IMG/VR virus record: IMGVR_UViG_2548876962_000006
Location: 1-16,814 of that record
DNA from: a virus
Taxonomy: Duplodnaviria > Heunggongvirae > Uroviricota > Caudoviricetes
Length of the DNA: 16,814 nucleotides
Strand: one strand, 5' to 3'
The notes beneath the pieces were generated by a model. It was not told the DNA's origin. It saw only the letters and a program-made list of their open reading frames with translations, and did not search any database. Positions 1-14,904 of this stretch are shown here, piece by piece. Position 1 is the stretch's first letter; each line of letters begins with the position of its first letter. A program made the position numbers and the translations under genes.

Positions 1-519
1 TCCATTCCGGCTGGTTTTAAAGCACTGGCTGACATGAGTCCGTTTGAATCCCTGCTGATTGTGGATTTAGGCGGAACCACGCTGGATGTGGCAAAGGTTC
101 AGGGACAACTGGCAGGTATCAGCCAGGTGTTTTGCGATCCACACGTAGGCGTTTCTCTGATGGCCAATGCCGTACTGTCGGTGATGGCCACTAACGGTAT
201 GCGCACCAGTCACCACATCGCCAATACCATTATCGAACATCGCCATGATGAAGCCTGGCTGCGCCAGCACATCCACAATGACGCACATTACAACAGCCTG
301 ATGGCGGTTATTCGTGAAAAGGAAGAAACACTGAAACAACGTGTACTCCGCGCGCTGGCGAGCTTTTCGGGTTACGGGCGGGTGATGGTTGTCGGTGGAG
401 GGGCGGAGATTGTGGCACCCGCTGTCCGCGAAGCCTGCGGAGTTAATGCGACTTTTATCGCGGACGGGGTGCCACAGTTTGCTCTGGTTAATGGGCTGTA
501 CGCAATGGACAAGGAGTAA
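1..519 (+). CDS. parM: ParM/StbA-like actin-type plasmid segregation ATPase, C-terminal part (5' end lies outside the window)
   Basis: Frame 1 is open from base 1 to the TAA at 517-519. The translation contains actin-fold motifs (LLIVDLGGTTLDVA; RVMVVGGGAEIV) and a C-terminus (FALVNGLYAM) resembling R1 ParM. A parR-like gene follows 4 bp downstream. Confidence 0.7.
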   Translation, partial: SIPAGFKALADMSPFESLLIVDLGGTTLDVAKVQGQLAGISQVFCDPHVGVSLMANAVLSVMATNGMRTSHHIANTIIEHRHDEAWLRQHIHNDAHYNSLMAVIREKEETLKQRVLRALASFSGYGRVMVVGGGAEIVAPAVREACGVNATFIADGVPQFALVNGLYAMDKE

Positions 520-523
520 ACCA

Positions 524-835
524 ATGACGACACCAACCAGACGGATAAGTTTCTATCTGAAGCCTGCAGCCGTCAAGAACGAAAGCGAAGCATGCGCCTG
601 GCTGGACAGCCTTACACCAGAAGCCCGCAAAAGCGGCCAGCGTGTGGCTTTTCTGGCCGGGCTGGCACTTCTGAAGACGAATCCGGCAGAGGCTTACCGG
701 CTGGCTGCATGGGCTGACGATGAGCCGTTACCCGTGACACAGGTCAGAGAGGAAAAAACCAAAGCACAGGCTGCGCCAGAGGCGCAGCCAACCAGCCAGA
801 TGGCCGCAAACATCAGAGCGTTATTCCCCGAATAA
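524..835 (+). CDS. parR: ParR-like centromere-binding adaptor (ribbon-helix-helix)
   Basis: ATG at 524 preceded by AAGGAG at 511-516. The N-terminus (RRISFYLKP...AWLDSLTPEARKSGQRVAFLAGLALL) and C-terminus (IRALFPE) resemble R1 ParR as recalled. The upstream part of the 389-835 ORF overlaps parM and is not used. Confidence 0.65.
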   Translation: MTTPTRRISFYLKPAAVKNESEACAWLDSLTPEARKSGQRVAFLAGLALLKTNPAEAYRLAAWADDEPLPVTQVREEKTKAQAAPEAQPTSQMAANIRALFPE

Positions 836-846
836 GGAGACGTGAT

Positions 847-885
847 AAGGCATGACGGACAGTTTTATTTAGTAAGTCATGCCTT
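847..885. repeat. Perfect 10-bp inverted repeat AAGGCATGAC-N19-GTCATGCCTT between parR and the next gene
   Basis: Read directly: 847-856 aaggcatgac and 876-885 gtcatgcctt are exact reverse complements, separated by an AT-rich 19-bp spacer. Candidate operator or RNA stem-loop; there is no U-tract after it. Confidence 0.6.
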
Positions 886-909
886 CAGAACAGTAAGCAT
901 GAGGCATCC

Positions 910-1110
910 ATGATGAAAAGACTGACATTACTTTTTTCGCTGTTTTTCATTCCGTTGGCGCATTCAACCACGCCGAACTGCGCAACGGAAAAGAGCAACA
1001 CCGTCATCGTTGTCCAGTGCGATGACGGCACGGTGACAATCACCGACTCAAGTAAGGGAAGCGTCCTGGTCTGTCGCAAAGGACACCTCTGTCAGCACAC
1101 TGAACTTTGA
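910..1110 (+). CDS. Small secreted cysteine-rich protein of unknown function (signal peptide plus about 47-aa mature part with 4 Cys)
   Basis: GAGG at 901-904 five nt before ATG 910. N-terminus [19 protein letters not shown] is a typical Sec signal peptide. The mature part has four Cys (C-x17-C...C-x5-C), consistent with a disulfide-bonded periplasmic mini-protein. No family recognised. Confidence 0.5.
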
Positions 1111-1121
1111 AGGAGAAAGAG

Positions 1122-1454
1122 ATGACCACATCGCATTCTGCAATTACCGAGGAAAAAGCCTTCCACATACTCGAACGACTGGAGGCGCTCGCCACAGAGG
1201 AAGAAATCGCCCCGGAGAAACTGGTTGAGTGCTGCCGTGTGATGTTGCGCCGCAAGAACGACATCGCGAGGCTGACATCCTACACATCATCCGTATCTAT
1301 CAGGCAAACGCTTTATTGCAGCTTCTGCAAGAAACCACAGCACGCCATCAAAAAGTTAATTGCCGGGGACGACGTTTTCATCTGCGACGAGTGTGTGGAA
1401 GTGTGCAACAGCGTTATCCGAGAAGAACAAGGAACGCAGGGAGCAGGAAGATGA
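1122..1454 (+). CDS. Stand-alone protein with a C-terminal ClpX-type C4 zinc-binding domain (ZBD)
   Basis: ATG 1122 preceded by AGGAG at 1111-1115. The C-terminal segment [40 protein letters not shown] aligns residue-by-residue with the E. coli ClpX N-domain ([40 protein letters not shown], recalled from memory) including all four Zn-ligand Cys. There is no AAA+ module. The N-terminal 55 aa are acidic/helical and unrecognised. Confidence 0.7.
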
Positions 1455-1520
1455 ATGACGAATTTGACGGCTTTTAATTTTATCGGGGCGCACTGTCGCC
1501 CCCGCACTAAGGAAAACACG

Positions 1521-2045
1521 ATGAAAAAAGATGAATATCTGTTCATGACGAACGCGTTGCGGGTTGGTCTGGCCCCCTGCCCTGTCTCCGTGGAGTCTGT
1601 TGTCGGGAACACGATTTTTCGAACACTGCGCGATCGCGTCTCCGTGAAAATGATTCATCCGCTACCCAAAACCGCCAGCATGATCTATCTGCCGTTGCCC
1701 GACGCGATCCGGCTCATGCGTTCGCTGAAATTTGCGATTTGGATGCAGACACAACTCAACAAAGCAGTACAAAACACCTTCGTTAAGAGATTGATGCCAG
1801 AGCTTGCCGCCAGATGCGCAAAATGCACCAGACCAGCACTTCACTTTGATCTGTCGTTGATTCAACGCGCTGCCGAATCCGAGTTCTACCGACTTACCTT
1901 TATCCGTCATGCGCGACATGAGGACAAAGAGATGCGCCGCCTTTTGAATCTGTTTGTTTTTTCCGTTCGACGCACACGCGTTCAGGTCAATCGCATGATG
2001 CAGGCACAGGAAGAGCTGACGCAACACAAAGGAGTCATCCAATGA
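1521..2045 (+). CDS. Hypothetical basic protein (174 aa), unknown function
   Basis: ATG 1521 preceded by AAGGA at 1509-1513. Its stop overlaps the next start (ATGA at 2042-2045), indicating translational coupling. An alternative start at ATG 1455 (overlapping the upstream stop) is possible. Arg/Lys-rich; no family recognised. Confidence 0.5.
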   Translation: MKKDEYLFMTNALRVGLAPCPVSVESVVGNTIFRTLRDRVSVKMIHPLPKTASMIYLPLPDAIRLMRSLKFAIWMQTQLNKAVQNTFVKRLMPELAARCAKCTRPALHFDLSLIQRAAESEFYRLTFIRHARHEDKEMRRLLNLFVFSVRRTRVQVNRMMQAQEELTQHKGVIQ

Positions 2046-2581
2046 GCAAGATTGACTATCAGGCACTGCGTGAAGCGGCAGAGCAGGCAATACATGATGA
2101 CTGGGGATATGATGCGGATATTTTCCATGAACAGGTGACACCATCGGGTGTGCTGGCGTTGCTGGATGAGAATGAAAGAATGTGCTGCAACCTCATCGCC
2201 CGCAATGGTGAGATTGAAGGGCTTCGAAGGCGGGCTGCTGAACTGGAAAAAATCGCCACGGACTATGCACTTAAATTCCAGAAAGCACAGGATGCACTAA
2301 AGTACGCCGTGTTAATGCGTAACAAAGCGCTTTCTTTTGAAGAGGCGATGCAATGTACAAAAGAAAAATACGAGGGAGTCATAAAAAAACTTGCCAAAAA
2401 CGAGCATCCAGTCTCACCAATACCAAAACCAGAGAATGACAAATTTACCGTATCGATCCCGGACCCAAAGGAGTATTTCATTAACGGCGTATTCCAGCCT
2501 TTGCGATACGAACGGGATGTTGAGCAAGCCATCATAAAGGCAGGCGGAAAAGTCTCGTGGCAGGAGACAGAAGATAATTAG
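2042..2581 (+). CDS. ead/Ea22-like family protein (lambdoid-phage accessory protein)
   Basis: N-terminus MSKIDYQALREAAEQA and the following coiled-coil segment (LLDENERM...GEIEGLRRRAAELEK) are typical of the Ea22-like family found in lambdoid prophage early-left regions. Start is coupled to the upstream gene. Confidence 0.6.
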   Translation: MSKIDYQALREAAEQAIHDDWGYDADIFHEQVTPSGVLALLDENERMCCNLIARNGEIEGLRRRAAELEKIATDYALKFQKAQDALKYAVLMRNKALSFEEAMQCTKEKYEGVIKKLAKNEHPVSPIPKPENDKFTVSIPDPKEYFINGVFQPLRYERDVEQAIIKAGGKVSWQETEDN

Positions 2582-2594
2582 ATCCACGACAAAC

Positions 2595-2620
2595 CAGGGC
2601 GATAATCACACATCGCCCTG
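2595..2620 (+). terminator. GC-rich hairpin (9-bp stem, 8-nt loop) 14 nt after the Ea22-like stop; possible terminator or RNA-processing structure
   Basis: CAGGGCGAT (2595-2603) pairs with ATCGCCCTG (2612-2620). No immediate U-tract; the nearest T-run is at 2647-2654, so intrinsic-terminator status is uncertain. Confidence 0.3.
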
Positions 2621-2621
2621 C

Positions 2622-2648
2622 TGCACAATAGTGCACAAATTTGCACAA
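2622..2648. promoter_or_regulatory. Three direct TGCACAA repeats with exact 10-bp phasing (iteron- or operator-like); a fourth copy at 2714-2720
   Basis: Read directly: TGCACAA at 2622-2628, 2632-2638 and 2642-2648, plus 2714-2720. Nearby are GGATCCGT direct repeats (2692-2699, 2703-2710) and the 14-bp palindrome AAAAACGCGTTTTT (2721-2734). Confidence 0.5.
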
Positions 2649-2962
2649 TTTTTTTGAACGACTTTTTACCCTTCCGGCCCGCGTGGCGGCTGGATCCGTA
2701 AAGGATCCGTGCGTGCACAAAAAAACGCGTTTTTGTTGCGCGCGGGTGCCGGGGGAACAGCCCGCAATTTGGGGTCTGAAAGCACCCTCAGAAAGCGCCA
2801 GAAATGCGGCTGATTGCGCCCCTGACGCGATGTTTTTTGTTGGGGTATCGTGTGTATTGCGCGATCTCATTCGCACTCTGTGGCTTGTTCTGGATGTGTG
2901 GTGCAGTCCGCGCCATTGAGGAGCGTGACAGGATACAGATGACATCAACAGAAGGAGGAGCC

Positions 2963-3466
2963 GTGGGACACTTTGAGGATTTGTGTTGCATTAACCGGGA
3001 TGTGGAAAGAAAGCGTTATCGGGCCACTGAAATCTTACGGGATGAGGCCCGTAGCCTGGTCGGGTTTTATGAGGACTGGCTGGGGCTTCCGTCGCTGTAC
3101 CGCGAACACGAACACGGCGAGTCGCGGCCTTATGTGGAAACAGGCCTGCCCTGTCGGAACGCGGAAGACTTTCGCGCCTGTTCTGTTAATCAAATCCCTG
3201 TCGCAGCAGACGGTATTTTCCATGTGGCCGTGCGTACATGGATTGAATCACTGTCGGGTATTGAGCCGGTTGATATTGTTGTTGCGTTTGAGTTGCATTC
3301 GGTGAGCGAAGCTCGCACTACGCTGAAAGTCACCGTGGAGGATGATGTTTCTGTTCGCGTGAGCATTACTGCGCCGGAAGACAGGAAATGGACGGGGGTG
3401 ACGAAAAGCATGAAAAGACACATCGCCGTCCGTCTGAAAAAACGCGCTCCGTTTGCACTTCGTTAA
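2963..3466 (+). CDS. Hypothetical protein (about 167 aa), unknown function, last gene before the Q stop and cos region
   Basis: Open frame 2804-3466. Best start by RBS is GTG 2963 (AAGGAGGAG at 2952-2960); alternatives are ATG 2939 and ATG 2804, the latter adding a hydrophobic Cys-rich N-terminus. No family recognised. Confidence 0.45.
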   Translation: MGHFEDLCCINRDVERKRYRATEILRDEARSLVGFYEDWLGLPSLYREHEHGESRPYVETGLPCRNAEDFRACSVNQIPVAADGIFHVAVRTWIESLSGIEPVDIVVAFELHSVSEARTTLKVTVEDDVSVRVSITAPEDRKWTGVTKSMKRHIAVRLKKRAPFALR

Positions 3467-3482
3467 GCCGGAGCTGGTGAGT

Positions 3483-3507
3483 CGGGGCATAAATTTTTTA
3501 TGCCCCG
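3483..3507. terminator. Perfect 11-bp-stem hairpin (CGGGGCATAAA-TTT-TTTATGCCCCG) between convergent genes; candidate bidirectional terminator and/or cos-associated structure
   Basis: Read directly. It lies in the 67-bp gap between the plus-strand gene ending 3466 and the minus-strand Q gene ending 3534. No flanking U-tract on either strand. Confidence 0.35.
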
Positions 3508-3533
3508 GCGAAGCAGCAGACAAGCGCAGCGCG

Positions 3534-4583
3534 TCAGGATGTGGGCGGGGCATCCAGCAGTGCGTAAGGGTTAAAGCGGATCACCTCCTCACCCAGCCAG
3601 TCATTAACGTGCTTCATCGCCTCCATCACCGGCATCAGTTCGTTGATCGCAAACACTCTTGCCGCCTTCTCCACATCACCAAATGACCCCTGTCCGCTGG
3701 GCATTGCGCCCATCAGTTGTGGTGGTACGCGGTGAGCAGCCAGCACATCATCGCGGGAGGCCGCCTTGACGTTCATAAACTCATCCCGGGCGGTGATCTG
3801 CTGGAACGGCAGGATTTGCACACCGTCCTTCCCGCCGTTCGGTGCCTGGAGCAGCAGGTTTTTGAATGCCCCACCGCCTCTTGCACCCTGCAACGCTCTT
3901 TCGAGCGCCTGCATGCTTTCGCGGTCAACCTGTGCTGCTCCCACGTAAATAATGCAGCCTGCGTGTGAACCGTTGTCATAGTAGAGTTTGCGAAAACGAT
4001 CTGCCGAATGCGACAGACTGGCAGACAACAGGCCGCCGAGATATTCCGGCATTCCGTACATCTCCTGGTTGATGTCAGGGTTCAGCACATGACAGACGCG
4101 CCCCTGACGGAACTCGTGGTCCTGCTCGCCCGTCTGTACAAACCAGTACACATCCGGCTCAACACCACGACGGACGTATTTTGCCAGGGCATGGCGCAGT
4201 TCCAGTTTTCCGCCCAGCCTGTTGGTGCGCAGTTCAAGAAACGCATTCCCGAAGACAAACCAGTCCAGCGCAAAGGCGGAGAACGCCTGCCGGGACAGCA
4301 GCCGGTGCGGAATGAAGCAGCCCAGAATGGCATTTCGTTTGAAGTACAGCGCCGACTGATGCCACGAGGTCTGCCGGGATGCCCGCGCCAGCCCGTACCA
4401 GTCAACGGGTGTTTCGTAGTACCTGCCGTTACTCAGGCAGTATGCGTTATCCAGCAGGTCGAGCGCGTGCGCATCGTAAGGGCCATCGAACGAGAAAGCG
4501 CTTAGCGACGGCTGGCGGCGCAGTGCCTCTGCCAGCTCCACGCCGTCATCGCGGCGGGTATATTTTCGTTTTTGTTTTTTCAT
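3534..4583 (-). CDS. Q: Portal protein (P2 gpQ homologue)
   Basis: 349-aa ORF, size and position as for P2 Q (about 344 aa), immediately downstream of and overlapping the terminase gene; start codon overlaps the P stop. Confidence 0.9.
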   Translation of the reverse strand: MKKQKRKYTRRDDGVELAEALRRQPSLSAFSFDGPYDAHALDLLDNAYCLSNGRYYETPVDWYGLARASRQTSWHQSALYFKRNAILGCFIPHRLLSRQAFSAFALDWFVFGNAFLELRTNRLGGKLELRHALAKYVRRGVEPDVYWFVQTGEQDHEFRQGRVCHVLNPDINQEMYGMPEYLGGLLSASLSHSADRFRKLYYDNGSHAGCIIYVGAAQVDRESMQALERALQGARGGGAFKNLLLQAPNGGKDGVQILPFQQITARDEFMNVKAASRDDVLAAHRVPPQLMGAMPSGQGSFGDVEKAARVFAINELMPVMEAMKHVNDWLGEEVIRFNPYALLDAPPTS

Positions 4584-6337
4584 CAGAACTCAATCACCCG
4601 CATTCCTGTTGCACCGTCCTCATCGCCCAGCGGCTCGTTAATGACGGCAAGCATGGTTGCCCACGCGAGGTCGCCGTGGTTTACGCCGCGCGTGCGGTCT
4701 GTTTCATACGTTATTGCGCCGCCCGCCGTTTTTGCCTTGCGCACGGCGTTGAATGCCCTGACCAGCTCACGTTCGCCCCGGTCATACTCCCAGCGCCCTG
4801 CACGAATAATCTGCAACATCTTCAGCACAAGCGCGCGTTTGGATGCCAGCGTGAACGTGTACGGTACGGCGGCAGGCCAGAACCGCCGCACTATCTGGTA
4901 CACTGCCTCACCGTTACCGCCGGTCACGTCGATGCCAATGTGCCGGACGTTGTATTTGTGCGTGAACTGCTCAATCACACGGGCCTGCTCTTCAAATTCC
5001 AGCCCCTGCACCTGCAAGGTCTCCACCGTGCGGAATTTGCCGCCCCTGACAGCAGGTGGTACAACAACAGACAGCGCCCCGCTGTCGCCATTACCGCTGC
5101 TGCCGTTAGCGTCGTAGCCAATCCACACGGGACGATTACCCACGGGACGTGCTGCGAACGGTTTCCAGTCATTCCACTCGTCATAGCCATCCACGCCACA
5201 TCCCAGCAGGGCATTAAGATCGAAGGCGGATTCGCCGTCGCTGACAAACTCGCACATGTAGAGATTGCGGAACTCATCCGGCGTGTTCATGTTGCGGATT
5301 TTGTCGATACTGGTGAGCGTCCAGCCCAGGTCCACAGCATCCTGAATCGTCACGATTTGCCGCCACGCACTGTCGGGGCACAGCACTCCACTCTTCAGGG
5401 CGTGATGGGACACATCAATCTCCCTGCGCTCACTGCGTGGTCGCCCTGCATTCCACCGCGCGCCGTTCCAGAACTGAAACGCCTCGTGCATCTCCGATGA
5501 CGGCGTGGAAAAGTAGGTCTGCGTCAGGCCATTCAGCGTGGCCATCGCGCCTGCGACCTTGCGCAGCGTGATGAAGTTCGACACCCAGAAAAATTCGTCA
5601 AAATACAGATTGCCCGTATATGACTGTGCAGTCGCGGCGGATGTCCCCAGAAAATGCAGTTCCGCGCCACTGGAAAGCACAATTTTGTCACCGCCTTTCA
5701 GCTCGACGTCCACAGCCTGTGCCGCCTTCTGAATCACGCTTTTAAACTGAAAGGCCTGACGGCGTGAGGCTGACAAAAAAATCTGGTTTCGCTGGTACGG
5801 ATATTTCACGCGCTCATCCAGCGCACGCAGCAGTGCCTCCTGCGCAAAATACCAGGTCGCGCCTATCTGTCGGGATTTCACAATAATGCGAATATCAACA
5901 CCGGCACGGCGGCAGACTTCCAGCGCCTCATACCAGCGTCGCTGATGTTCTGCCAGCTGACCGGTGATGTGTTCGCGCAGTGCGGCAACCTGCGATTCGG
6001 AAAAATGGTTTTTCAGCTTTCGTTTTCGCGGGCTTTTTTCCGCGCAGCCCTTGCTGTCATTCAGTTTTGCGAGCTGGCGTGTCAGCAGGTCGATTTCCTT
6101 AAAATCACCGCCGCTCTTTTCAGCTTTTGAGGTCAGCTGAACCAGCCGCGCATCAATCGACTGCGTGACCCGCTCCACGGGCGGCGTTTCATCCCATCCG
6201 TCGCGCTTTTTCCACGAATAAATCGTGTTCTGACTGATACCCATCAGCCGCGATATTTCAGCGGGCGGGTAACCCTGCCAGTAAAGCTGTTTTGCCCGCA
6301 GCCTGATGAATGCGTCCTGAATCATGTCGTCTGTCAC
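4583..6337 (-). CDS. P: Terminase large (ATPase/nuclease) subunit (P2 gpP homologue)
   Basis: 584-aa ORF divergent from O, as in P2. The ORF-track start is GTG at 6337 with AGGAG directly adjacent; ATG at 6325 (MIQDAF...) is an alternative start. Confidence 0.9.
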   Translation of the reverse strand: MTDDMIQDAFIRLRAKQLYWQGYPPAEISRLMGISQNTIYSWKKRDGWDETPPVERVTQSIDARLVQLTSKAEKSGGDFKEIDLLTRQLAKLNDSKGCAEKSPRKRKLKNHFSESQVAALREHITGQLAEHQRRWYEALEVCRRAGVDIRIIVKSRQIGATWYFAQEALLRALDERVKYPYQRNQIFLSASRRQAFQFKSVIQKAAQAVDVELKGGDKIVLSSGAELHFLGTSAATAQSYTGNLYFDEFFWVSNFITLRKVAGAMATLNGLTQTYFSTPSSEMHEAFQFWNGARWNAGRPRSERREIDVSHHALKSGVLCPDSAWRQIVTIQDAVDLGWTLTSIDKIRNMNTPDEFRNLYMCEFVSDGESAFDLNALLGCGVDGYDEWNDWKPFAARPVGNRPVWIGYDANGSSGNGDSGALSVVVPPAVRGGKFRTVETLQVQGLEFEEQARVIEQFTHKYNVRHIGIDVTGGNGEAVYQIVRRFWPAAVPYTFTLASKRALVLKMLQIIRAGRWEYDRGERELVRAFNAVRKAKTAGGAITYETDRTRGVNHGDLAWATMLAVINEPLGDEDGATGMRVIEF

Positions 6338-6391
6338 CTCCTGTCATACAGGCTACACGCGCACGTCCCGCCTGTATTCACACCGCACTTT

Positions 6392-6409
6392 GTCGCAACG
6401 CTCTGACAA
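6392..6409. promoter_or_regulatory. TGT-N12-ACA dyad: candidate Ogr/Delta-type late-activator binding site in the divergent P/O promoter region
   Basis: Read directly: TGT at 6392-6394, 12-nt spacer, ACA at 6407-6409, about 70-85 bp upstream of the O start codon (6477). P2-family late promoters carry this element centred near -55. Confidence 0.5.
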
Positions 6410-6476
6410 CACCACCGCGTTGAGCGCGGGCCGCAGGGCGCGTCATCATGAGCACAACGATATTCGAGGAGGCCGT

Positions 6477-7346
6477 ATGGCAGACAAGAAACCTGAACGA
6501 AAAAAATTCCGCGTGGCCGTTTCCGGTACGACCTCAGACGGGCGCGAAATCTGTGGCGATATGCTGAAAGCTGCCGCCGCCAGTTATGACCCGTCCGTCT
6601 ACGGTGCACGTGTGAACGTGGAGCACATCCTTTCACCGCACCCGGACAGCGCCTTCGCGGCGATGGGGGATGTGGTGGCACTGAGCGCAGAGGACATCAC
6701 TGACGGGCCGCTGGCGGGGCGCACGGCGCTGTATGCCGAAATTGAACCCACCGGACGCATGAAGAAACTGCTGGATGACGGCAAAAAGATTTATGCCAGC
6801 GTCGAGCTTTACCCGCAGTCATTCATCACGGGCGGTCCGTATCTTCAGGGACTGGCGATGACCGACAGCCCGGCAAGTCTTGGCACTGAGCGTCTGCAGT
6901 TTGCCGCACAACAGCGCGCGCAGGTGATGGCGTTTAACAATCAGCAGTGCGAGCCGCCACTGTTCACCGATGCCATTGAGGCTGAAATTATCGCCCTGAA
7001 CCAGCGCCAGAACGACGAAGGCGTTCAGTGGTTCGCGCGTGTCATGAACCTTATCAGCGGCGGGCGTAAAACGGACGGCGAACAGTTTGCGCAGATGCGT
7101 GACGTTGTGGAGCGCGTGGCCTCTGCGCACGCTGACCTGCTTGACCGTTTCAACACACAGGAACGCCAGCGCGACGAAGACCGCGCACAAGTCACCCGCC
7201 TGACCCGCGAACTGACCACGCTGCGTACACAGCTGCAGGCACAGGACGGCGACCCGCATCAGCGTTTCTCCGCAACGGGCACTGACACACCTGTTCACAC
7301 TGGCGTAACCGGCGGCGGTATTGCTTACACCGCCTGTGATTTCTGA
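6477..7346 (+). CDS. O: Capsid scaffolding protein (P2 gpO homologue)
   Basis: ATG 6477 preceded by GAGGAGG at 6466-6472. The 289-aa product matches P2 gpO (about 284 aa) in size and in position upstream of the major capsid gene. Confidence 0.85.
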   Translation: MADKKPERKKFRVAVSGTTSDGREICGDMLKAAAASYDPSVYGARVNVEHILSPHPDSAFAAMGDVVALSAEDITDGPLAGRTALYAEIEPTGRMKKLLDDGKKIYASVELYPQSFITGGPYLQGLAMTDSPASLGTERLQFAAQQRAQVMAFNNQQCEPPLFTDAIEAEIIALNQRQNDEGVQWFARVMNLISGGRKTDGEQFAQMRDVVERVASAHADLLDRFNTQERQRDEDRAQVTRLTRELTTLRTQLQAQDGDPHQRFSATGTDTPVHTGVTGGGIAYTACDF

Positions 7347-7355
7347 GGATTAACC

Positions 7356-8417
7356 ATGAACCTGACTCTTTCATCCACCACCCGCGGCGCTCTGGCGATG
7401 TACATGCAGCAGCAGGCGCGCATGAACAATGTTTCTCCTGCTGCGCTTGCCCAGCGTTTCAACGTTCAGCCCGCCGTGCAGCAGCGCCAGGAAAACGCCA
7501 TTCAGCTGAGCGACGAGCTGCTGCAAAAAATCAACGTCATCGGTGTGACCGACCAGAAAGGCGAAAAAGTCCTGATCGGCATCAACGGTCCGTCCGCCAG
7601 TGTGAACACCAGTACAAGCGAGCGCCGCGAGCCGGCATCACTCCACGAGCTGACGGCACGCCAGTACGCCTGCGAGCAAATCAACTACGACACGTTCATC
7701 AGCTACGCGCAACTGGACGCGTGGTCCGCACACCCGGATTTTCAGGCACGGGTCAGCGCGCAGATTGCCCGCCGTATCGCCCTTGACCGCATCATGATTG
7801 GTTTCAACGGCACGTCCCGCGCCGTGAAGTCCGACCGCAGCAGTAATCCGCTGTTGCAGGACTGCGCCGTGGGCTGGCTGGAAAGCATCCGCCAGAATGC
7901 AGCCCAGCGCGTGATGTCTGATGTCACCATTACGGCACGCGATATGAACAACGCCGTCACCCACAAAGGCAAGTACAACAACCCGGACGCGCTGGTACAG
8001 GATGCGCGCTCATCCCTGCTGGACGAGTGGTACAAGGATTCATCCGACCTTGTGGTGATGATGGGACGCGACCTGTTCAACACGCTGCGCCTGCCGCTCA
8101 TTAACGCCATGAGTGCCGCCGCGCCGAACACGGAACTGATGGCCGGTCAGCTGATTACCTCCTCCCGCCTGATTGGTGGTCTGCCGGTATATCTCGCGCC
8201 GTTCTTCCCGGCAGATGCACTGCTCATCACCTCGTTCGACAACCTGTCCATCTACTACCAGGTGGGGGCATTGCGTCGTCTGATGCGTGAAGAGCCGGAC
8301 TACAACCGCATCGCAACCTATCAGTCCTCCAGCGATGCCTGGGTGGTGGAAGACTTCGGCAAATGCGCCCTTATCACGGGGCTGAAACTGGCTGATGAAA
8401 GTAATCACGAAGACTGA
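7356..8417 (+). CDS. N: Major capsid protein (P2 gpN homologue)
   Basis: 353-aa ORF (P2 gpN is about 357 aa) between scaffold and small terminase; RBS GAGGA upstream of ATG 7356. Confidence 0.85.
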   Translation: MNLTLSSTTRGALAMYMQQQARMNNVSPAALAQRFNVQPAVQQRQENAIQLSDELLQKINVIGVTDQKGEKVLIGINGPSASVNTSTSERREPASLHELTARQYACEQINYDTFISYAQLDAWSAHPDFQARVSAQIARRIALDRIMIGFNGTSRAVKSDRSSNPLLQDCAVGWLESIRQNAAQRVMSDVTITARDMNNAVTHKGKYNNPDALVQDARSSLLDEWYKDSSDLVVMMGRDLFNTLRLPLINAMSAAAPNTELMAGQLITSSRLIGGLPVYLAPFFPADALLITSFDNLSIYYQVGALRRLMREEPDYNRIATYQSSSDAWVVEDFGKCALITGLKLADESNHED

Positions 8418-8466
8418 TTTATCTGAACCACGGGCGGGCGCTGACCGCCCGTAAGAGGAGAGAACA

Positions 8467-9279
8467 ATGCTGACACCGGCACAGGCGCATTTTCAGCGCA
8501 CGATGGCACAACGCGCCGGACTGACCGATGACAGTCAGTCACAGACAGTGCGCACGGCTCACGAACAAATCCTGCACCGTCTGCGACTGGCACAGGCACG
8601 ACTGAAAGGCATTCAGTCAAAGGCGGCGAAAGCGGAACTGAAAAAGACGCTGCTGCCGGATTTTTCCGGCTGGATTGACGGCACGCTGGAGAGCGACAGC
8701 GGACGCCAGGATGAGGTGATTGTCACCCTCATGGTCTGGGCCGTTGACTGTGGTGATTTGCCGCTGGCGCTGCGTATCGGTGAGTACGTGGTGCGCCATA
8801 ACCTCAGCACACCGGACAGCTTCGGGCGCGATGCCGCCACGCTGCTGACAGAGGAAATCTGTAACCCGGTGCTGACGCTGGCAGGCACTGACCAGGACGC
8901 GGATTTGTCCGGGTACATCGCCCCGCTGGATACCCTCTGGACAATCGTCACCAACCGGGACATGCCGGATGAGGTTCGCGCCAAACTCTGCAAGGCGCGC
9001 GCGTTTTCCCGTCGTGCTCTGACAGATGCAGACAGTGTGACCCTGTCGCTGAAACTGCTGCGCGAAGCGATGCACCTGAACCCGAACGCGGGCGTGAAGC
9101 GCGAGATTGCCACGCTGTCCCGCGCGGTAAAAAAGCTGACCAGCAGTGATGGCGGGGAGAACAACGCGGAAAACAAAAGCACCGCGAAAACCGCCACCAC
9201 GAAAACCGCGACGAAAAAGGCAGGCAAAAAGAGCGCCACAAAAGCCACTGCCACACGGAAAAGCAAAAAATCCGCGTGA
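8467..9279 (+). CDS. M: Terminase small (endonuclease) subunit (P2 gpM homologue)
   Basis: Similarity to P2 gpM as recalled (LLPDFSGW...; ...DMPDEVRAKL...; AGVKREI...), with a Lys/Ala/Thr-rich basic C-terminal tail as in gpM. RBS GAGGAGAG upstream. Confidence 0.85.
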   Translation: MLTPAQAHFQRTMAQRAGLTDDSQSQTVRTAHEQILHRLRLAQARLKGIQSKAAKAELKKTLLPDFSGWIDGTLESDSGRQDEVIVTLMVWAVDCGDLPLALRIGEYVVRHNLSTPDSFGRDAATLLTEEICNPVLTLAGTDQDADLSGYIAPLDTLWTIVTNRDMPDEVRAKLCKARAFSRRALTDADSVTLSLKLLREAMHLNPNAGVKREIATLSRAVKKLTSSDGGENNAENKSTAKTATTKTATKKAGKKSATKATATRKSKKSA

Positions 9280-9402
9280 AATTCAGCTTTCACGCATAAC
9301 GACTTCGCCCCGGCGACAGGCGGCGCGGACGGTCACCTGGTTTTTAACTCCGCGACCTTCTGACCGTTCGCCCACCGCCTGATTTTTTTACGGAGGCTCG
9401 TC

Positions 9403-9897
9403 ATGAGCATGATTGCAAAACCCGGTATCACTGCCGCGACGGAGGATGTCGCGGACACGGACGACGGTGATGCACGCATCACCACGGACGACTTCTGGCC
9501 GGAGACAGAACTTCAGGCGCTGCGCCTTGCCGTTCGCCTGCCCGGTCGCACCACCACGTCACGTCTGATGCACGCGGCAACCGAAGCCGTGGCACACGTC
9601 ACCGGAGAGCTGCGCAACTGGCAGGCGCAGCAGATGAATGACGGATACAGCACGCTGGCGGACGTTCCGGCCTCCCGCGTGAACGGCGAAAGTGTCAACG
9701 TGCACCGCTTCCGCCTTGCGGTGTATGCCGCCACCCGCGCCCTGATACTGGAGCGCGTGCGCGATGTGGATACCACTGAACAGGGCGACCGGAAAGCGGA
9801 CGCACTGGAAGCCCAGACCGGCGACCTCTGGCGCGACGTGCGCTGGGCCATTGCCGATATTCAGGGCGCACCGCGCATTTTTGCGAGGCTGTGCTGA
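9403..9897 (+). CDS. L: Head completion/stabilisation protein (P2 gpL homologue)
   Basis: 164-aa ORF at the gpL position; GGAGG RBS; stop overlaps the start of X. Confidence 0.8.
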   Translation: MSMIAKPGITAATEDVADTDDGDARITTDDFWPETELQALRLAVRLPGRTTTSRLMHAATEAVAHVTGELRNWQAQQMNDGYSTLADVPASRVNGESVNVHRFRLAVYAATRALILERVRDVDTTEQGDRKADALEAQTGDLWRDVRWAIADIQGAPRIFARLC

Positions 9898-10097
9898 TGA
9901 AGGTGAAGGCATTACAGGGCGACACCGTTGACCTGCTGTGCTTCCGGCACTACGGCACCACGCAGGGCGTGACCGAAAAGGTGCTGGCCGCCAATCCGGG
10001 GCTGTGCGGACAGATTTTTCTGGAAGCCGGACAGGAAGTGGAATTACCGGAGCAGGAAGAGAAAAAAACACAGGAGACGGTGCAGTTATGGGATTAG
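9897..10097 (+). CDS. X: Tail protein X (LysM-like, P2 gpX homologue)
   Basis: MKVKALQGDTVDLLCFRHYGTTQGVTEKVLAANPGL closely parallels P2 gpX (MKTFALQGDTLDAICVRYYGRTEGVVETVLAANPGL, recalled). ATG 9897 overlaps the L stop. Confidence 0.85.
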   Translation: MKVKALQGDTVDLLCFRHYGTTQGVTEKVLAANPGLCGQIFLEAGQEVELPEQEEKKTQETVQLWD

Positions 10098-10381
10098 GTT
10101 TTTTTCGCAGTATTTACGACCACATCGCCTTCGCCGCCTCCGTTTCTGCGGTCACGATTGGCGCAATGACCATCAGTGAAAAAATCGCACTGGCCGGGCT
10201 GCTGCTGGGTGCGCTGTCTCTCTTTCAGGGCTGGCTTCACCGCCGCCGCATGGAGCGTGCACAGGTCCGCCGCAATGCGCTGATTGCACAGATTCTGGCG
10301 CAGGCCGGAACGCGCGGGCTTCATGAAAGTGAACAACGGGCGCTTGCCGCACTGCAACGGGATAACGATGAAAAACATTAA
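10088..10381 (+). CDS. Holin, two predicted TMDs (class II-like; possible pinholin)
   Basis: 97-aa product with two hydrophobic helices (AFAASVSAVTIGAMTI; IALAGLLLGALSLF) and a charged C-terminal tail. It sits immediately upstream of, and overlaps, the endolysin gene. Confidence 0.7.
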   Translation: MGLGFFRSIYDHIAFAASVSAVTIGAMTISEKIALAGLLLGALSLFQGWLHRRRMERAQVRRNALIAQILAQAGTRGLHESEQRALAALQRDNDEKH

Positions 10382-10910
10382 GCGATATGCCGCCGCCGTG
10401 ATTGTGGCGCTGGGTGTCTCGCTGGCTCCCGAAGCACTGCGCACCTCACAGGAGGCGCAGATAAAAATTGCCACGTGGGAAGACTGCCGCGCCACACCCT
10501 ACACGGACATCGCGGGTGTTGCCACCGTGGGCTGCGGCTCCACGGGGAACGTACAGAAACACCTGTACAGCGAACAGGAGGTGGCCCGCCGCTGGGTGAA
10601 TGACATGCAGCGGGCGGAGAACTGTATTAACCAGAATTTTCAGGGGGCAGCCATGCCGCAGTCGGCCTTCGAGGCGATGACGGATGCGGCCTTCAATCTG
10701 GGCTGTTCCGGCCTGATGTGGTTTAAGGACCGCAACGGAAAGCGCCAGCGCACCACCATCTGGAAACAGGCACAGACGCATAACTGGGCGCTGATGTGCA
10801 CCCGCCTCACGGATTTTGTGAATGCGGGCGGGAAGCGCAGTCAGGGACTGGTTAACCGCCGCAGCGATTTTCGCACCTGGTGTCTGCGGGATGTGGAGAA
10901 ACCGAAGTGA
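10368..10910 (+). CDS. Endolysin, GH24 T4-lysozyme-like muramidase with an N-terminal SAR-like hydrophobic segment
   Basis: Catalytic E-x8-D-x5-T triad is present (WEDCRATPYTDIAGVAT). N-terminal KRYAAAVIVALGVSLAPEAL is consistent with a signal-arrest-release domain. The ATG overlaps the holin 3' end. It does not resemble P2 gpK. Confidence 0.8.
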   Translation: MKNIKRYAAAVIVALGVSLAPEALRTSQEAQIKIATWEDCRATPYTDIAGVATVGCGSTGNVQKHLYSEQEVARRWVNDMQRAENCINQNFQGAAMPQSAFEAMTDAAFNLGCSGLMWFKDRNGKRQRTTIWKQAQTHNWALMCTRLTDFVNAGGKRSQGLVNRRSDFRTWCLRDVEKPK

Positions 10911-11353
10911 GACTGACCACCGCCGCCGTTGTCGCCCTGTTTTCAGGGGCGCTGTATCTGGTGTCGCTGCGTCTGGCCTGGCAGGCAGGGCATGAACGGG
11001 CACGTCGTGAATATCACGAACAGGCGCTGGCGGGAACGAATGCCGCCGTGGATGCACTTCATGCAGAACTCCGGGGCATCAGCGGCCTGCTGGCGCAGGT
11101 CCGCGCCGCAGAGCAGCACCGGAATCAGGAAGGAGAAAAACGCCGTGAAGAGATACGCAACGCACTCCGGGAAAATCCGTGCGCGGCTGCTGCTGTGCCT
11201 GCCGCTGTTGCTGACCGCCTGCAACAGCGCGCCGCGACCCGTCGTGGTCACTCAGACGCAGCACGCACCGCTGCCGGAAAGTCTGACACAGCCAACGCCG
11301 GTCCCCTCCCTGCCCCGACCGCTGACGTGGGGCGGACTGGCCGTCTGGAGTGA
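10907..11353 (+). CDS. lysB: i-spanin (Rz/LysB-like inner-membrane spanin subunit)
   Basis: GTG 10907 with GGAG 8 nt upstream, overlapping the endolysin stop. N-terminal TMD (TTAAVVALFSGALYLVSL) followed by a charged coiled-coil periplasmic region. An o-spanin gene starts within it in the +1 frame. Confidence 0.6.
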   Translation: MRLTTAAVVALFSGALYLVSLRLAWQAGHERARREYHEQALAGTNAAVDALHAELRGISGLLAQVRAAEQHRNQEGEKRREEIRNALRENPCAAAAVPAAVADRLQQRAATRRGHSDAARTAAGKSDTANAGPLPAPTADVGRTGRLE

Positions 11354-11438
11354 CAGGCTGCTGGACGCGCTGGAGAGCTGCAACGCCGACAAGGCAGCCA
11401 TTAAAGCAACCGAACAACAACGCCGGATGCGACCGTAA
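11145..11438 (+). CDS. lysC: o-spanin (Rz1/LysC-like outer-membrane lipoprotein), overlapping the 3' part of the i-spanin gene
   Basis: GTG 11145 with AGGAG at 11131-11135. Lipoprotein signal with lipobox LLTAC followed by a Pro-rich mature part. Overlapping architecture as for P2 lysB/lysC. Confidence 0.65.
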   Translation: MKRYATHSGKIRARLLLCLPLLLTACNSAPRPVVVTQTQHAPLPESLTQPTPVPSLPRPLTWGGLAVWSDRLLDALESCNADKAAIKATEQQRRMRP

Positions 11439-11447
11439 GGAGAAGTC

Positions 11448-11930
11448 ATGCTGAAAATGAACCGTCTGCGCGAAGCCCTCACAGCCTCATCCCGGTGGTG
11501 TCGCGCGAATCCGGAAAAACTCACCGTGTTTGCAGAAAGCGGAAGTATTGAGACCACAGGTGAAACCCCGACGTTTGTCTACCGTTACACGCTCGTGGCC
11601 TTCGTTATGGATTTTCCGGGACACATCGACGAGCTGATGCTGCCGCTGATTGTCTGGCTCATGCACAACCAGCCGGATTTGCTGCTTAACCCGGAAAAAA
11701 ACCAGGACGTTAAGTTTTCCGTTGCTGTCAATGACGACGACAGCACCGACCTGTTACTGGAGATTCCCGTGCGCGAGCGCGTGAAAGTCTGCCGCAATGA
11801 ACGGGGTGAACTGTATCCGGTGCACCTGCCGGAACCCCGCCCGCCTGCCGCACTGACGGGCGCATGGGGGGGGCTGATTGTTGAGGATGTGACCTTTAAG
11901 GATTTGACGGATGAACACGACGACGCATGA
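11448..11930 (+). CDS. R: Tail completion protein (P2 gpR homologue)
   Basis: AAGGAG RBS. MLKMNRLREALTASSRWCRANPEKL... parallels the P2 gpR N-terminus as recalled; 160 aa against about 155 aa in P2. Confidence 0.8.
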   Translation: MLKMNRLREALTASSRWCRANPEKLTVFAESGSIETTGETPTFVYRYTLVAFVMDFPGHIDELMLPLIVWLMHNQPDLLLNPEKNQDVKFSVAVNDDDSTDLLLEIPVRERVKVCRNERGELYPVHLPEPRPPAALTGAWGGLIVEDVTFKDLTDEHDDA

Positions 11931-12549
11931 AACGGACGCGGTTTTTCGCGACATCCTGAGCGGGCTTTCCGCCGCCGGACGGGCACGCACGGCGCGGGCT
12001 GTCGGGCAGGCGCTGCGCCGGAGCCAGCAGGCGCGCATCCGCGCACAGAAGAACGCAGACGGTTCGCCGTATCCGGCACGAAAACGGCAGGTGATGCACA
12101 CCCGTCGTGAAGTGAAATTTGTGTGGAACGGCGAGGTCCGCACGCTGCGCCAGTGGGGACACAAGCGTTACCGGAAAGGCCGCGCCATTATCGGGCGCGA
12201 CCCTGACCGTGGCGGTGCGCTGAGGACGTTTTACCGCGATGATATTGAGCGATACATCGCGGTATCGTCCATGTCTGCCCGCCAGACCAGCAAAAAAAAC
12301 ACGCCGATGTTCGCGCGTCTTCGCACATACCGCTGGTTAAAAATGCGCTCAGATGCGGAAGGCGCTGTTGTGGGCTTCGATGGCCTGGCTGCGCGGATTG
12401 CCCGCGTGCATCAGGCAGGGTTACGCGACGAGGTGGCTCCGGGCGTGATGACCACCTACCCGGTGCGTGAACTGCTGGGTATAACCGCAGCCGACGAACG
12501 CCTGGTATATGACACGATTATCCGCTCCCTGAGGAGTGCGGCACGATGA
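11911..12549 (+). CDS. S: Virion morphogenesis / tail completion protein (P2 gpS-like), longer than P2 S
   Basis: Conserved gpS-like segments (RIRAQKNADGSPYPARK...; VVGFDGLAARIARVHQAGL...; RELLGIT...). The start overlaps the 3' end of R and the stop overlaps the V start. 212 aa against about 150 aa suggests internal insertions. Confidence 0.7.
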   Translation: MNTTTHETDAVFRDILSGLSAAGRARTARAVGQALRRSQQARIRAQKNADGSPYPARKRQVMHTRREVKFVWNGEVRTLRQWGHKRYRKGRAIIGRDPDRGGALRTFYRDDIERYIAVSSMSARQTSKKNTPMFARLRTYRWLKMRSDAEGAVVGFDGLAARIARVHQAGLRDEVAPGVMTTYPVRELLGITAADERLVYDTIIRSLRSAAR

Positions 12550-13127
12550 CAGCGGAAATCATGCGACTGCTTGCAAACATCATCCGTACGGGCGTGATTT
12601 TTGCCGTGGACGAAACCACGTGGCGCGTTCGTGTGCGCAGCGGAGAGCTGGAAACCGACTGGCTGCGCTGGAACACACCACGCGCGGGCGCGTTCAGCGT
12701 CTGGCTGCCGCCTGCCGTGGGCGAACAGGTCATGATTGCCTGTATCAATGGCGACCCCGTAACCGCTTCCGTTATCGGCGGTCTCTGGAGCAGTGAACAT
12801 CCGGCGCCCGGCAGCAGCCTGAAGGAAATCGTGGTCACAGCGCCTGACGGCGCGGTGTTCCGCTACGATGCGGACGCAGGTGCACTGAGCGCCAGCGGGA
12901 TCAGAACCGCCACCATTCAGGCCGGAACGGGCGTGACGCTGGACACCCCCACCGTCACCTGCACAAACCATCTGAAGGCGGCAACGATTGAGGTGACAGA
13001 AGGCGGAACCCTGAGCGGCAATATCTCGCACAGCGGCGGTAGCTTCACATCAAACGGTGTGACGGTGCACACGCACAAACACAGTGGCGTGAAGAGCGGC
13101 AGCGACAGCACAGGAGGCCCGCAATGA
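12546..13127 (+). CDS. V: Baseplate assembly protein V (spike/hub)
   Basis: 193-aa ORF at the gpV position, with a Gly/Ser/Thr-rich C-terminal region typical of spike proteins; ATGA overlap with S. Confidence 0.85.
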   Translation: MTAEIMRLLANIIRTGVIFAVDETTWRVRVRSGELETDWLRWNTPRAGAFSVWLPPAVGEQVMIACINGDPVTASVIGGLWSSEHPAPGSSLKEIVVTAPDGAVFRYDADAGALSASGIRTATIQAGTGVTLDTPTVTCTNHLKAATIEVTEGGTLSGNISHSGGSFTSNGVTVHTHKHSGVKSGSDSTGGPQ

Positions 13128-13489
13128 GTGCACGTTTTCTGGGGATGAACCCCGAGGCCACCGGCACACTCAGCGATACGGACCATCTGTGGAACAGCGT
13201 GAGGGATATTCTGTTAACGCCGCTCGCCAGCCGGGTGATGCGCCGGGAATACGGCAGCCTGCTGCCGGATTTGCTGGATGCACCGATGAATGCCACCACA
13301 CGCCTTCAGTGCATGAGCGCCGTGGTGATTGCCCTGACACAGTGGGAGCCACGCATCGCCCTGAATGCCGTTGACATTCAGTGGGAGGCGGGCGGAAAAG
13401 CCGTCATCACCCTCACCGGCACCCTGACAGAAAGCCTTGAAACCGTACAAAACACACTGACACTCAGGAGCGACAATGCCAGCCGTTGA
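13124..13489 (+). CDS. W: Baseplate assembly protein W (GPW/gp25 family)
   Basis: MSARFLGMNPE...VRDILLTPLASRVMRREYGSLLPDLLDAP matches the conserved GPW/gp25 N-terminal signature; 121 aa. Confidence 0.85.
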   Translation: MSARFLGMNPEATGTLSDTDHLWNSVRDILLTPLASRVMRREYGSLLPDLLDAPMNATTRLQCMSAVVIALTQWEPRIALNAVDIQWEAGGKAVITLTGTLTESLETVQNTLTLRSDNASR

Positions 13490-14372
13490 CCTGTCGGAAC
13501 TGCCGACACCACAGATTATTGAAACGCCGGATTTTGAGGTCATCCTGGCGGAGGTGAAAGAAAGCATGATTACGGCATTCCCGCAGATACAGCAGGCTGC
13601 TGTCCGGTCAGCCATGGCGCTGGAGTCCGAACCGCTCACGGTCATTGCCCAGACTTTTGCGCTGCGTGAGTTGCTGCATCGCCAGCGTATTAATGAGGGC
13701 GCAGCGGCCTGTATGCTGAGTCACTCCTCAGGCAGCAACCTGGATAACCTCGCCGCCAACATGAACACCGCGCGACTGGTCATCACTCCGGCCACGGACA
13801 CCACGGAGGCCGTCATGGAAAGCGACACAGCCCTGCGGCTGCGTGCGCAGTCTGCATTTGATGGCCTCAGCGTGGCCGGTCCCACCGGGGCGTATGAATA
13901 TTTTGCCCGCAGTGCCAGCGGTCAGGTGGCGGACGCGCGCGCAACCAGCCCCGCACCGGCGGAAGTGGTGGTGGCGGTGCTGTCCACAGAAGGCGACGGC
14001 ACGGCGACCGAAGAACTCCTGACAACGGTCAGAAATGCGCTGAATGCCGAAGACGTTCGCCCGGTCGGTGACCGTCTGACGGTACAGAGCGCAGAAATCA
14101 TCCGGTATCAGATTGATGCCCGGCTTTACTTTTATCCGGGGCCGGAGTCGGAACCCATCCTGAATGCTGCCAGAAATAACCTGAAAGCCTGGCTTGCTGA
14201 ACAAGGCAAAATCGGTCGCGATGTGGCGCTCTCCGCCATCATGGCCACGCTGCATGTTCAGGGCGTTCAGCGCGTGGAACTGACCAGCCCCGCACAGAAT
14301 ATTGTTATCAGCGATGTGCAGTCAGCGTACTGCACATCGTTTTCGGTCAGTGCAGGAGGCACCAATGAGTGA
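13476..14372 (+). CDS. J: Baseplate assembly protein J
   Basis: 298-aa ORF (P2 gpJ is about 302 aa) following W with overlap; conserved order W-J-I. Confidence 0.85.
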   Translation: MPAVDLSELPTPQIIETPDFEVILAEVKESMITAFPQIQQAAVRSAMALESEPLTVIAQTFALRELLHRQRINEGAAACMLSHSSGSNLDNLAANMNTARLVITPATDTTEAVMESDTALRLRAQSAFDGLSVAGPTGAYEYFARSASGQVADARATSPAPAEVVVAVLSTEGDGTATEELLTTVRNALNAEDVRPVGDRLTVQSAEIIRYQIDARLYFYPGPESEPILNAARNNLKAWLAEQGKIGRDVALSAIMATLHVQGVQRVELTSPAQNIVISDVQSAYCTSFSVSAGGTNE

Positions 14373-14898
14373 ACCGTCACTGCTCCCCCCTTCAGCCAGT
14401 GATTTCATGCGCTGCGTGGAACGGGGTACGACCCGGCTGTCAGCATTACCTGTCAGCCTTAACCAGCTCTGGGATCCTGACACCTGCCCGGTGGCTCTGT
14501 TGCCTTATCTGGCGTGGGCGCTGTCCGTGGACAGGTGGGACCGTGACTGGACGGAAGAAACAAAGCGCCAGGTGATCCGTGATGCTTGGGCAATCCACCG
14601 CCATAAGGGAACCATCAGCGCCATCAGGCGTGTGGTTGAACCCTTTGGCTATGTCATTAACGTGACGGAATGGTGGGAAACCGGCGATACGCCAGGGACT
14701 TTCCGGCTGGACATCTGTGTACTGGATGTGGGGATCACAGAGGAAATGTACACCGAAATGGAAAGACTCATTGCCGATGCCCGCCCGGTGAGCCGTCATC
14801 TGGTTGGCCTGAATATCATGCAGGATATTCAGGGATACCTGTATACCGGCGGCGTTGTGTATGACGGCGACGTTATTACGATTTATCCGCAGGAATAA
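14365..14898 (+). CDS. I: Baseplate/tail protein I
   Basis: ATG 14365 with GGAGG RBS, overlapping the J stop; 177 aa against about 176 aa for P2 gpI. Confidence 0.8.
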   Translation: MSEPSLLPPSASDFMRCVERGTTRLSALPVSLNQLWDPDTCPVALLPYLAWALSVDRWDRDWTEETKRQVIRDAWAIHRHKGTISAIRRVVEPFGYVINVTEWWETGDTPGTFRLDICVLDVGITEEMYTEMERLIADARPVSRHLVGLNIMQDIQGYLYTGGVVYDGDVITIYPQE

Positions 14899-14904
14899 GA
14901 CAGT

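Follow-up and report, generated by a model that had tools for sequence, protein, structure and literature searches.

In P2-like phages, the interval between gene A on the replication side and the portal gene Q (gpA-gpQ), next to the cohesive-end (cos) site, is a described hotspot for variable cargo, which carries old and tin in P2 itself (Rousset et al. 2022, PMC9122126). According to the same study, the cos site of P2-like phages is located between the replication side and portal Q, and the gene pair StbA plus Plasmid_stab_B is present at the hotspot in about a quarter of P2-likes; entries in its Table S5 already list arrangements of this pair with zf-C4_ClpX and with Ead_Ea22, and the table contains at least 43 mentions of ClpX and at least 81 of Ea22. 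A 2026 preprint further reported that 19% of P2-likes carry solely unknown genes at the hotspot. Here, we analysed a 16,814-nucleotide stretch of viral DNA (IMG/VR record IMGVR_UViG_2548876962_000006, positions 1 to 16,814; hereafter the window) and within it a block of five plus-strand genes at 910-3533, which a first-pass annotation had placed at the old/tin-equivalent locus and proposed as a candidate defence or exclusion system. The placement was confirmed, as the block lies in the cos-proximal hotspot between the gene A side and the portal gene (PMC9122126). No cassette like this block was found in the set tested by Rousset et al., and its cargo matches no system validated there (PMC9122126).

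Overall, the reading that we favour, with some confidence, is that the block, in the cos-proximal hypervariable region of P88-like phages, is a patchwork of early accessory genes that assort independently of one another, one of which encodes a likely mimic of the N-terminal domain of ClpX. We compared 80 viral contigs encoding a ParR relative as well as annotated loci, 78 related loci being used for the slot-A counts. Two variable slots were distinguished, one on either side of an invariant core. Slot A extends from the stop codon of parR to the core (836-2621 in the window, plus strand) and holds four tightly packed genes on the strand of the A-parM-parR early unit, while slot B extends from the core to the stop codon of the portal gene and contains in the window an insert of roughly 700 bp (2766-3467, plus strand), carrying the gene for a 167-aa protein (p167) in place of about 240 bp of P88/UMNF18 sequence. 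Slot A showed 28 arrangements among the 78 related loci, with lengths of 535-3715 bp, and thus behaved as a swappable region. Slot B occurred in two states, either "empty" (255-308 bp) or occupied (768-937 bp) by one gene of the family that contains p167; it was occupied in 20 of 68 loci, whatever slot A contained, and the empty allele of about 300 bp was found in two-thirds of the relatives. The window combines a UMNF18-type slot A (98.4% identical; p167 is absent in UMNF18) with a SWHEFF_58-type slot B (95.6%), and this five-gene combination of slots A and B was present in none of 5,426 complete E. coli genomes.

Within slot A, the order of genes in the window is p66 (a small secreted protein), a protein with a ClpX-type zinc-binding domain (ZBD), p174 and an Ea22-like protein, and this full set was found in only 4 of the 78 loci. 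ZBD genes were present in 21 of the 78 P88-like loci and Ea22-like genes in 16, and the two also stand together in non-P2 phages, so that the combination is recurrent and not, as the first-pass annotation had assumed, unusual for a P2-type phage. The ZBD gene lacked p174 in 15 of its 21 loci, where it was followed by other small genes (c23 and c34) instead; p174 occurred in 14 loci, in 8 of which the ZBD gene was absent. An SSB-like gene takes the ZBD position in locus L005, and p174 is followed by a DUF7446 gene in L006 and by a YafO toxin module in L056 and L057. The sole notable linkage was that of p174 with a downstream Ea22-like gene (11 of 14 loci), and even where linked to p174, the N-terminal halves of the Ea22-like proteins were just 37-42% identical between types. 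Comparison of gene content across the loci thus indicates that the slot-A genes assort independently, each recombining in and out alone, and that the five genes do not form one co-inherited multi-gene system.

The core that separates the two slots (2622-2765, about 145 bp, no strand assigned) contains three copies of TGCACAA, two copies of GGATCCGT and a G-rich GGTGCCGGGGGAACAGCCCGC motif, and is nearly invariant in essentially all related loci, whatever flanks it. When nine loci, each differing from the others in upstream content, were aligned, conservation began exactly at TGCACAATAGTGCAC and extended through GGTG(A/C)CGGGGGAACAGCCCGC. The linear record of phage P88_4B11 (NC_049391) terminates within the core. 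Its invariance, this record end and the position of cos in P2-like phages suggest that the core is most likely the cos (packaging) region. Because the core splits the block, the five genes are arranged in two separate variable slots, which vary independently, and not as the unit of an operon plus an orphan gene that had been proposed. The repeats of the previously described "repeat-rich 380-bp regulatory region" were recovered (the TGCACAA and GGATCCGT copies), while its regulatory role was not upheld, as the core is common to relatives and most likely represents cos.

Two other ways of looking at the core were considered. Likeness in sequence to P2 cos was rejected, since the resemblance at about 2745 (12 of 19 positions) was weaker than random matches of 13 of 19 elsewhere in the window, and a search of the window with the P2 and 186 cos 19-mers gave no match at up to 3 mismatches. 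A centromere of the ParMR system appears less likely than cos, because a repeat-bearing candidate parC is found upstream of parM in UMNF18: GAATCCCGTAA occurs there twice, with an inverted CGGGATT between the copies, in the A-parM intergenic region just upstream of parM (locus L001, 2445-2528). The cos core 19-mer of P2 and P4 (GGCGAGGCGGGGAAAGCAC) is absent from this P88-like window, which would make its packaging site unlike that shared by P2 and the P4 satellites; the difference could bear on the ability of P4-like satellites to exploit P88-like helpers.

The ZBD protein (1122-1454, plus strand, 110 aa) matched Pfam zf-C4_ClpX (PF06689; 59 bits against a cutoff of 27, E 3e-16) and phrog_6797 (E 1.6e-49). 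Compared with the ZBD of E. coli ClpX (PDB 2ds5/1ovx), 27 of 41 residues were identical (66%, E 1e-15) and all four Cys ligands were present. The protein consists of a helical N-domain of about 60 aa followed by the ClpX-type C4 zinc-binding domain, and a family alignment indicated that both domains are conserved, the phage-specific N-domain being kept in both types of ZBD protein found in these loci. The AAA+ ATPase module of about 360 aa was absent (TIGR00382 score 48 against a cutoff of 371), and the product of 1122-1454 is a stand-alone ZBD protein, not ClpX. A literature search for stand-alone ClpX zinc-finger proteins of phages turned up nothing relevant.

The same ZBD type (about 75% identical) was found in the large phages D6 and PhiR41_1, directly 3' of an Ea22-like gene, in long series of small genes on one strand that bear the names Ea22, EaA and eae. 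A scan with the ZBD alignment identified 32 non-P2 viral contigs carrying this type (about 4-108 kb, some of them fragments); an Ea22-like open reading frame (ORF) lay on the same strand within 3 kb of the ZBD gene in 28 of these 32 and abutted it in 10. This recurrent neighbourhood suggests that both genes come from a shared pool of small "ea-type" early accessory genes, circulating among enterobacterial temperate phages (lambdoid exo-xis/ea regions, D6-like and other large phages). Two of the non-P2 contigs (L119, 3001-3849; L121, 2941-3822) differ in that the ZBD frame runs on into an ORF of 282-293 aa, as a ZBD fusion or through a lost stop codon. In RefSeq, the ZBD protein bears the name "carboxylate--amine ligase" (P88 gp19, L002 3899-4231; D6 orf93, L087 3549-3869), which appears to be a propagated error.

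Downstream of the ZBD gene, p174 (1521-2045, plus strand) encodes a basic, mostly helical ORFan of 174 aa with a pI of 10.6. None of the libraries searched gave a family match, including Pfam (where p167 had no match either), and profile searches of the PDB with the p174 and p167 families and tblastn of both proteins against 50,697 phage records were likewise without a match. Only 9 homologues of p174 were recovered among 5.8e9 proteins, an exhaustive HMMER search with its profile gave only 3 clusters among 1.84e9 representative proteins, and all p174 homologues lie in the same prophage locus. A third-position bias of substitutions (25/17/51 over the three codon positions) supports coding of p174; its AF2 model (pLDDT 64) was helical and yielded generic structural matches only in fold searches.

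The start codon of the Ea22-like gene (2042-2581, plus strand, 179 aa) overlaps the p174 stop codon by 4 nt (ATGA), in keeping with the translational coupling proposed for the pair. Its product matched Pfam Ead_Ea22 (PF13935) over residues 2-118 (52.6 bits against a cutoff of 27, E 9e-14), and the window DNA at 2043-2169 is 85% identical to lambda ea22. The protein combines an N-terminal Ead/Ea22 motif with a coiled-coil region, and its C-terminal domain differs from the one in lambda Ea22; compared to the PDB, this C-terminal domain gave nothing but a chance match (E 0.46), and the C-terminal domain of lambda Ea22 was not matched. Lambda Ea22 has been described as an early protein that modulates development in favour of lysogeny, and its C-terminal domain differs from phage to phage (PMC10834534). 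Residues 90-120 of the window protein (VLMRNKALSFEEAMQCTKEKYEGVIKKLAKN, 31 residues, window 2309-2401) are 55% identical to the C-terminus of a small protein, c65 (L064 7285-7641, minus strand), encoded beside a Fic/Doc toxin gene in slot A of relatives. This looks like a module shared between the Ea22-like protein and a probable antitoxin, a role that c65 is given from its adjacency to the toxin gene.

The first gene of slot A, p66 (910-1110, plus strand), encodes a 66-aa protein with an N-terminal hydrophobic leader and four Cys residues (phrog_20764, E 2.5e-11), in agreement with the secreted four-Cys mini-protein noted earlier. The Cys residues are conserved in relatives (73-91% identity) and in homologues from Klebsiella siphophages (40-44% identical); the homologue of the 49-kb Klebsiella phage Snook lies within a run of small hypothetical genes. 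In the sampled contigs, p66 and p174 were confined to P2-like loci. By homology, p66 is distantly related to small early genes of Klebsiella siphophages, and p174 is found in P2-like loci only. The RefSeq annotation of UMNF18 (WP_136746568.1; L001 3885-4079) does not correspond to p66; it is an antisense shadow ORF of 64 aa (window 885-1079, minus strand). Both frames are open in relatives because their third codon positions coincide. The codon-position substitution pattern favours coding for p66 in the plus frame and is less gene-like for the antisense ORF, which has no family match, while the PHROG matches and the conserved Cys residues are found in the plus frame only.

Slot B of the window carries p167 (2963-3466, plus strand, 167 aa), which starts at a GTG behind GAAGGAGGAG, a strong Shine-Dalgarno sequence, and matched phrog_5091 over residues 3-165 (E 5.8e-31). 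An alternative ATG at 2939 would give 175 aa, and the 167-aa start is the one kept in homologues. The protein is a divergent member of its family, the commoner 174-aa type (c9) scoring E 1.4e-67; the two types align colinearly with 22% identity. The codon-position substitution pattern again favours coding, and the AF2 model (pLDDT 48.6) was too poor for a fold search. Proteins of the c9 type (slot B of L023, L037 and others) begin with MVINYKQLREKREQ, which resembles by eye the N-terminal motif MSKIDYQALREAAEQ of the Ea22 family in the window. Judged by eye, the phrog_5091 family may share the Ea22-like architecture of a helix at the N-terminus and a C-terminal domain that varies. The first-pass annotation thus described all five genes of the block correctly, from the basic character of p174 and the ClpX-ZBD and Ea22-like families to the separate 167-aa gene.

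Three hairpins mark the non-coding parts of the block. Directly after parR, AAGGCATGAC-N19-GTCATGCCTT (847-885, plus strand; -17.3 kcal/mol, z -4.1) lacks a U-tract; it might serve as a weak terminator, contribute to RNA stability or mark the edge of a cassette. The hairpin that follows the Ea22-like gene, CAGGGCGAT-N8-ATCGCCCTG (2595-2620, plus strand; -15.6 kcal/mol, z -5.3), travels with the C-terminal end of Ea22 in relatives. An inverted repeat between the convergent p167 and portal genes (3481-3509, no strand assigned; -30.6 kcal/mol, z -5.8), conserved in P88, UMNF18 and P88_4B11, is probably a bidirectional terminator. A crude promoter scan of 700-3700 detected no sigma-70-like promoter, and Rfam and tRNA scans of the block gave nothing. 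In P88_4B11, slot A is bounded on either side, 3' of parR and ahead of the core, by hairpins that share the arms CAGGGCGA and CGCCCTG and differ in their loops (L003, 3839-3856 and 4503-4528). In the window, a hairpin of the CAGGGCGA type is found on the right side only (2595-2620), with the different hairpin at 847-885 on the left. Such flanking hairpins may be recombination boundaries for cassette exchange.

The regions on either side of the block assign the source stretch, on the basis of its genes and nucleotide identity, to a P2-family phage of the P88-like type (Xuanwuvirus, Peduoviridae). The window opens with the 3' part of parM (34-519, plus strand; Pfam ParM_N, E 4e-69), followed by a parR/StbB-like partition gene (524-835, plus strand; Pfam Plasmid_stab_B, E 2e-23), and the two genes (34-835) form the conserved left border of the variable region. 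Its conserved right border includes the Q-type portal gene (3534-4583, minus strand) and the large terminase gene (4583-6337, minus strand), downstream of which we confirmed the P2 late genes O, N, M, L, K, R, S, V and J. By megablast, these flanks were matched at 92-93% identity in phages P88, P88_4B11, Chuche, 520873 and Citrobacter phiSM as well as in about 2,266 of the 5,426 complete E. coli genomes. The parM-parR pair lies directly 3' of Phage_GPA in UMNF18, P88, L005 and L006, and P88 and E. coli UMNF18 share the order replication gene A, parM, parR, variable DNA, portal. As this order is unbroken in P88 and other isolated phage genomes, the block lies inside the phage and contains no attachment-site junction.

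With regard to function, the products of the block would most likely modulate the host at the protein level and be made at an early stage of phage development. The isolated ZBD of ClpX dimerises and binds lambda O, MuA and the tail of SspB in trans. By mimicking this N-domain, the phage protein might compete for this domain or heterodimerise with it, which would alter the choice of substrates and adaptors by ClpXP and could in turn make phage proteins or antitoxins more stable. If it resembles lambda Ea22 in its action, the Ea22-like protein might bias the lysis-lysogeny decision through its variable C-terminal domain, and p66 would act in the periplasm or envelope. A much bolder version, to which we give only a small chance, is that stand-alone ClpX-ZBD proteins are widespread, unstudied phage mimics of the ClpX N-domain, recurrently placed beside Ea22-like coiled-coil proteins (here with the ORFan p174), which re-route ClpXP to disarm toxin-antitoxin or abortive-infection systems triggered by proteolysis, or to exclude ClpXP-dependent phages. 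If true, such re-routing would constitute a new mechanism of defence or counter-defence.

Several observations weigh against the reading of the block as a mosaic of early accessory genes beside cos. The assignment of the core to cos is positional, and the P2 cos 19-mer is absent. The promoter scan was crude, and the hairpin after parR might shield the block from early-operon transcription; its genes would then need a promoter that the scan missed. The linkage of p174 with a following Ea22-like gene in 11 of 14 loci, together with the coupling of p174 to the downstream gene, makes a functional unit of these two genes possible. The hotspot is, moreover, enriched for defence: according to the 2026 preprint, 15-32% of the unknown proteins at P2 hotspots carry an antiviral signal, and protection was seen with 6 of 8 unknown P4 loci chosen at random.

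These points bear above all on the question of defence. An alternative explanation, to which we grant an appreciable minority chance, is that one or more parts of the block act on their own in anti-phage defence or superinfection exclusion when expressed from the prophage; candidates would be p66 as a periplasmic entry blocker, the coupled p174 and Ea22-like protein as a two-gene system, or p167 alone as a system of one gene beside the probable cos. The location is a validated defence hotspot, and slot A of relatives carries recognised systems, which makes it a true defence hotspot in these phages as well: AbiLi/AbiLii-like genes (L041/42/54/82) and PDC-M04A (L043/44/55) on the minus strand, and RmrA-like plus PIN genes (L049/50/52) and IetA plus an S8 peptidase (L083) on the plus strand, besides YafO and Fic/Phd modules. 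The overlapping stop and start codons of the p174 and Ea22-like pair, which recurs in 11 of 14 loci, would suit a two-gene system, p167 and the c9 type belong to a family that diverges fast (22% identity) and is present in some loci and absent from others, and unknown genes at P2/P4 hotspots often turn out to be antiviral according to the 2026 preprint. However, PADLOC-DB v2.0.0 contained no family matching any of the five proteins, the antisense ORF or the c9 type of slot B at E <= 1, in line with the initial view that none of the five is a described defence system. Furthermore, both the ZBD gene and the Ea22-like gene are of a kind typical of the early "ea" genes, all five genes share the strand of the early operon and the scan detected no promoter for them, the role known for lambda Ea22 is that of a developmental modulator and not of a defence protein, and the homologues of p66 stand among small early genes of Klebsiella siphophages such as the 49-kb Snook. 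We take the group of Snook to be lytic, so that protection of a lysogen would not apply there. Even so, one or two of these genes could plausibly serve in defence or exclusion.

The original proposal, in which the whole of 910-3533 is a single new defence or exclusion system of several genes with a regulatory region of its own, is in our view very improbable. Its position at the hotspot, its tight packing and the lack of known functions would fit such a system, but the supposed regulatory region contains the conserved core common to relatives, most likely cos, every component occurs without the others, the full slot-A set is limited to 4 of 78 loci and the five-gene set was absent from all 5,426 E. 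coli genomes; the independent assortment of the genes, with slot B varying independently of slot A, contradicts it. We consider it just as improbable that the genes are neutral hitch-hiking or decaying DNA without current function, as might be suspected from the very narrow p174 and p167 families and the low-confidence AF2 model of p167: the frames are intact, substitutions are biased to third positions (25/17/51 for p174), the Cys pattern and zinc ligands are conserved, and pseudogenes are reported to be rare at P2/P4 hotspots (2026 preprint).

Should the mosaic of accessory genes be the correct reading, the block would be one more cargo variant of a hotspot already examined across thousands of E. 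coli genomes, made up of families that have been catalogued and never characterised. Our comparison adds that the P88-like hotspot is made of two independent slots, one on either side of the candidate cos, and suggests that its cargo is not all defence, part of it coming from an "ea" pool of early genes common to lambdoid and large non-P2 temperate phages (D6, PhiR41_1). The stand-alone ClpX-ZBD protein is the most testable element, since a protein 66% identical to the host domain lends itself readily to biochemical tests of a decoy or heterodimer mechanism.

Phage inhibitors of host proteases include T7 Gp4.5 and T4 PinA, which act against Lon, and lambda RexB, which acts against ClpP-dependent degradation. 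The ZBD protein would resemble them in concept only, as a small early phage protein that alters host proteolysis and in some cases prevents the loss of antitoxins leading to abortive infection; it has no sequence relationship to them, and its action on ClpXP is putative. Compared to the N-domain of host ClpX (PDB 1OVX, 2DS5-8), its C4 zinc-finger core is 66% identical over 41 residues, whereas the AAA+ unfoldase module is missing and a phage-specific helical N-domain of about 60 aa is found instead. Rst_3HP, a system of three hypothetical proteins from the same hotspot (pFR109), was considered and rejected as a counterpart, its proteins being far larger than the five of the block (66-179 aa) and sharing no motifs with them; the two are set apart by size and by a by-eye reading of motifs alone. 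Similar to the lambdoid exo-xis or "ea" regions (lambda ea22 and orf60a-63-61-73, and the strings of D6 and PhiR41_1), the block consists of small, tightly packed, same-strand, non-essential and mosaically shuffled genes, and the 5' end of its Ea22-like gene shares 85% identity with lambda ea22 DNA. In contrast to the lambdoid arrangement, the genes lie downstream of ParMR in a P2-family phage and not between exo and xis, and the C-terminal domain of the Ea22-like protein is not of the lambda type. The closest counterpart is the gpA-gpQ hotspot of Rousset et al., with which the locus shares the position between the replication side and portal Q, a probable proximity to cos and an equal hypervariability. 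It differs in that P2 old and tin share the direction of portal Q, whereas this block lies on the opposite strand, and in that the variable region here is composed of two slots, one on either side of the candidate cos.

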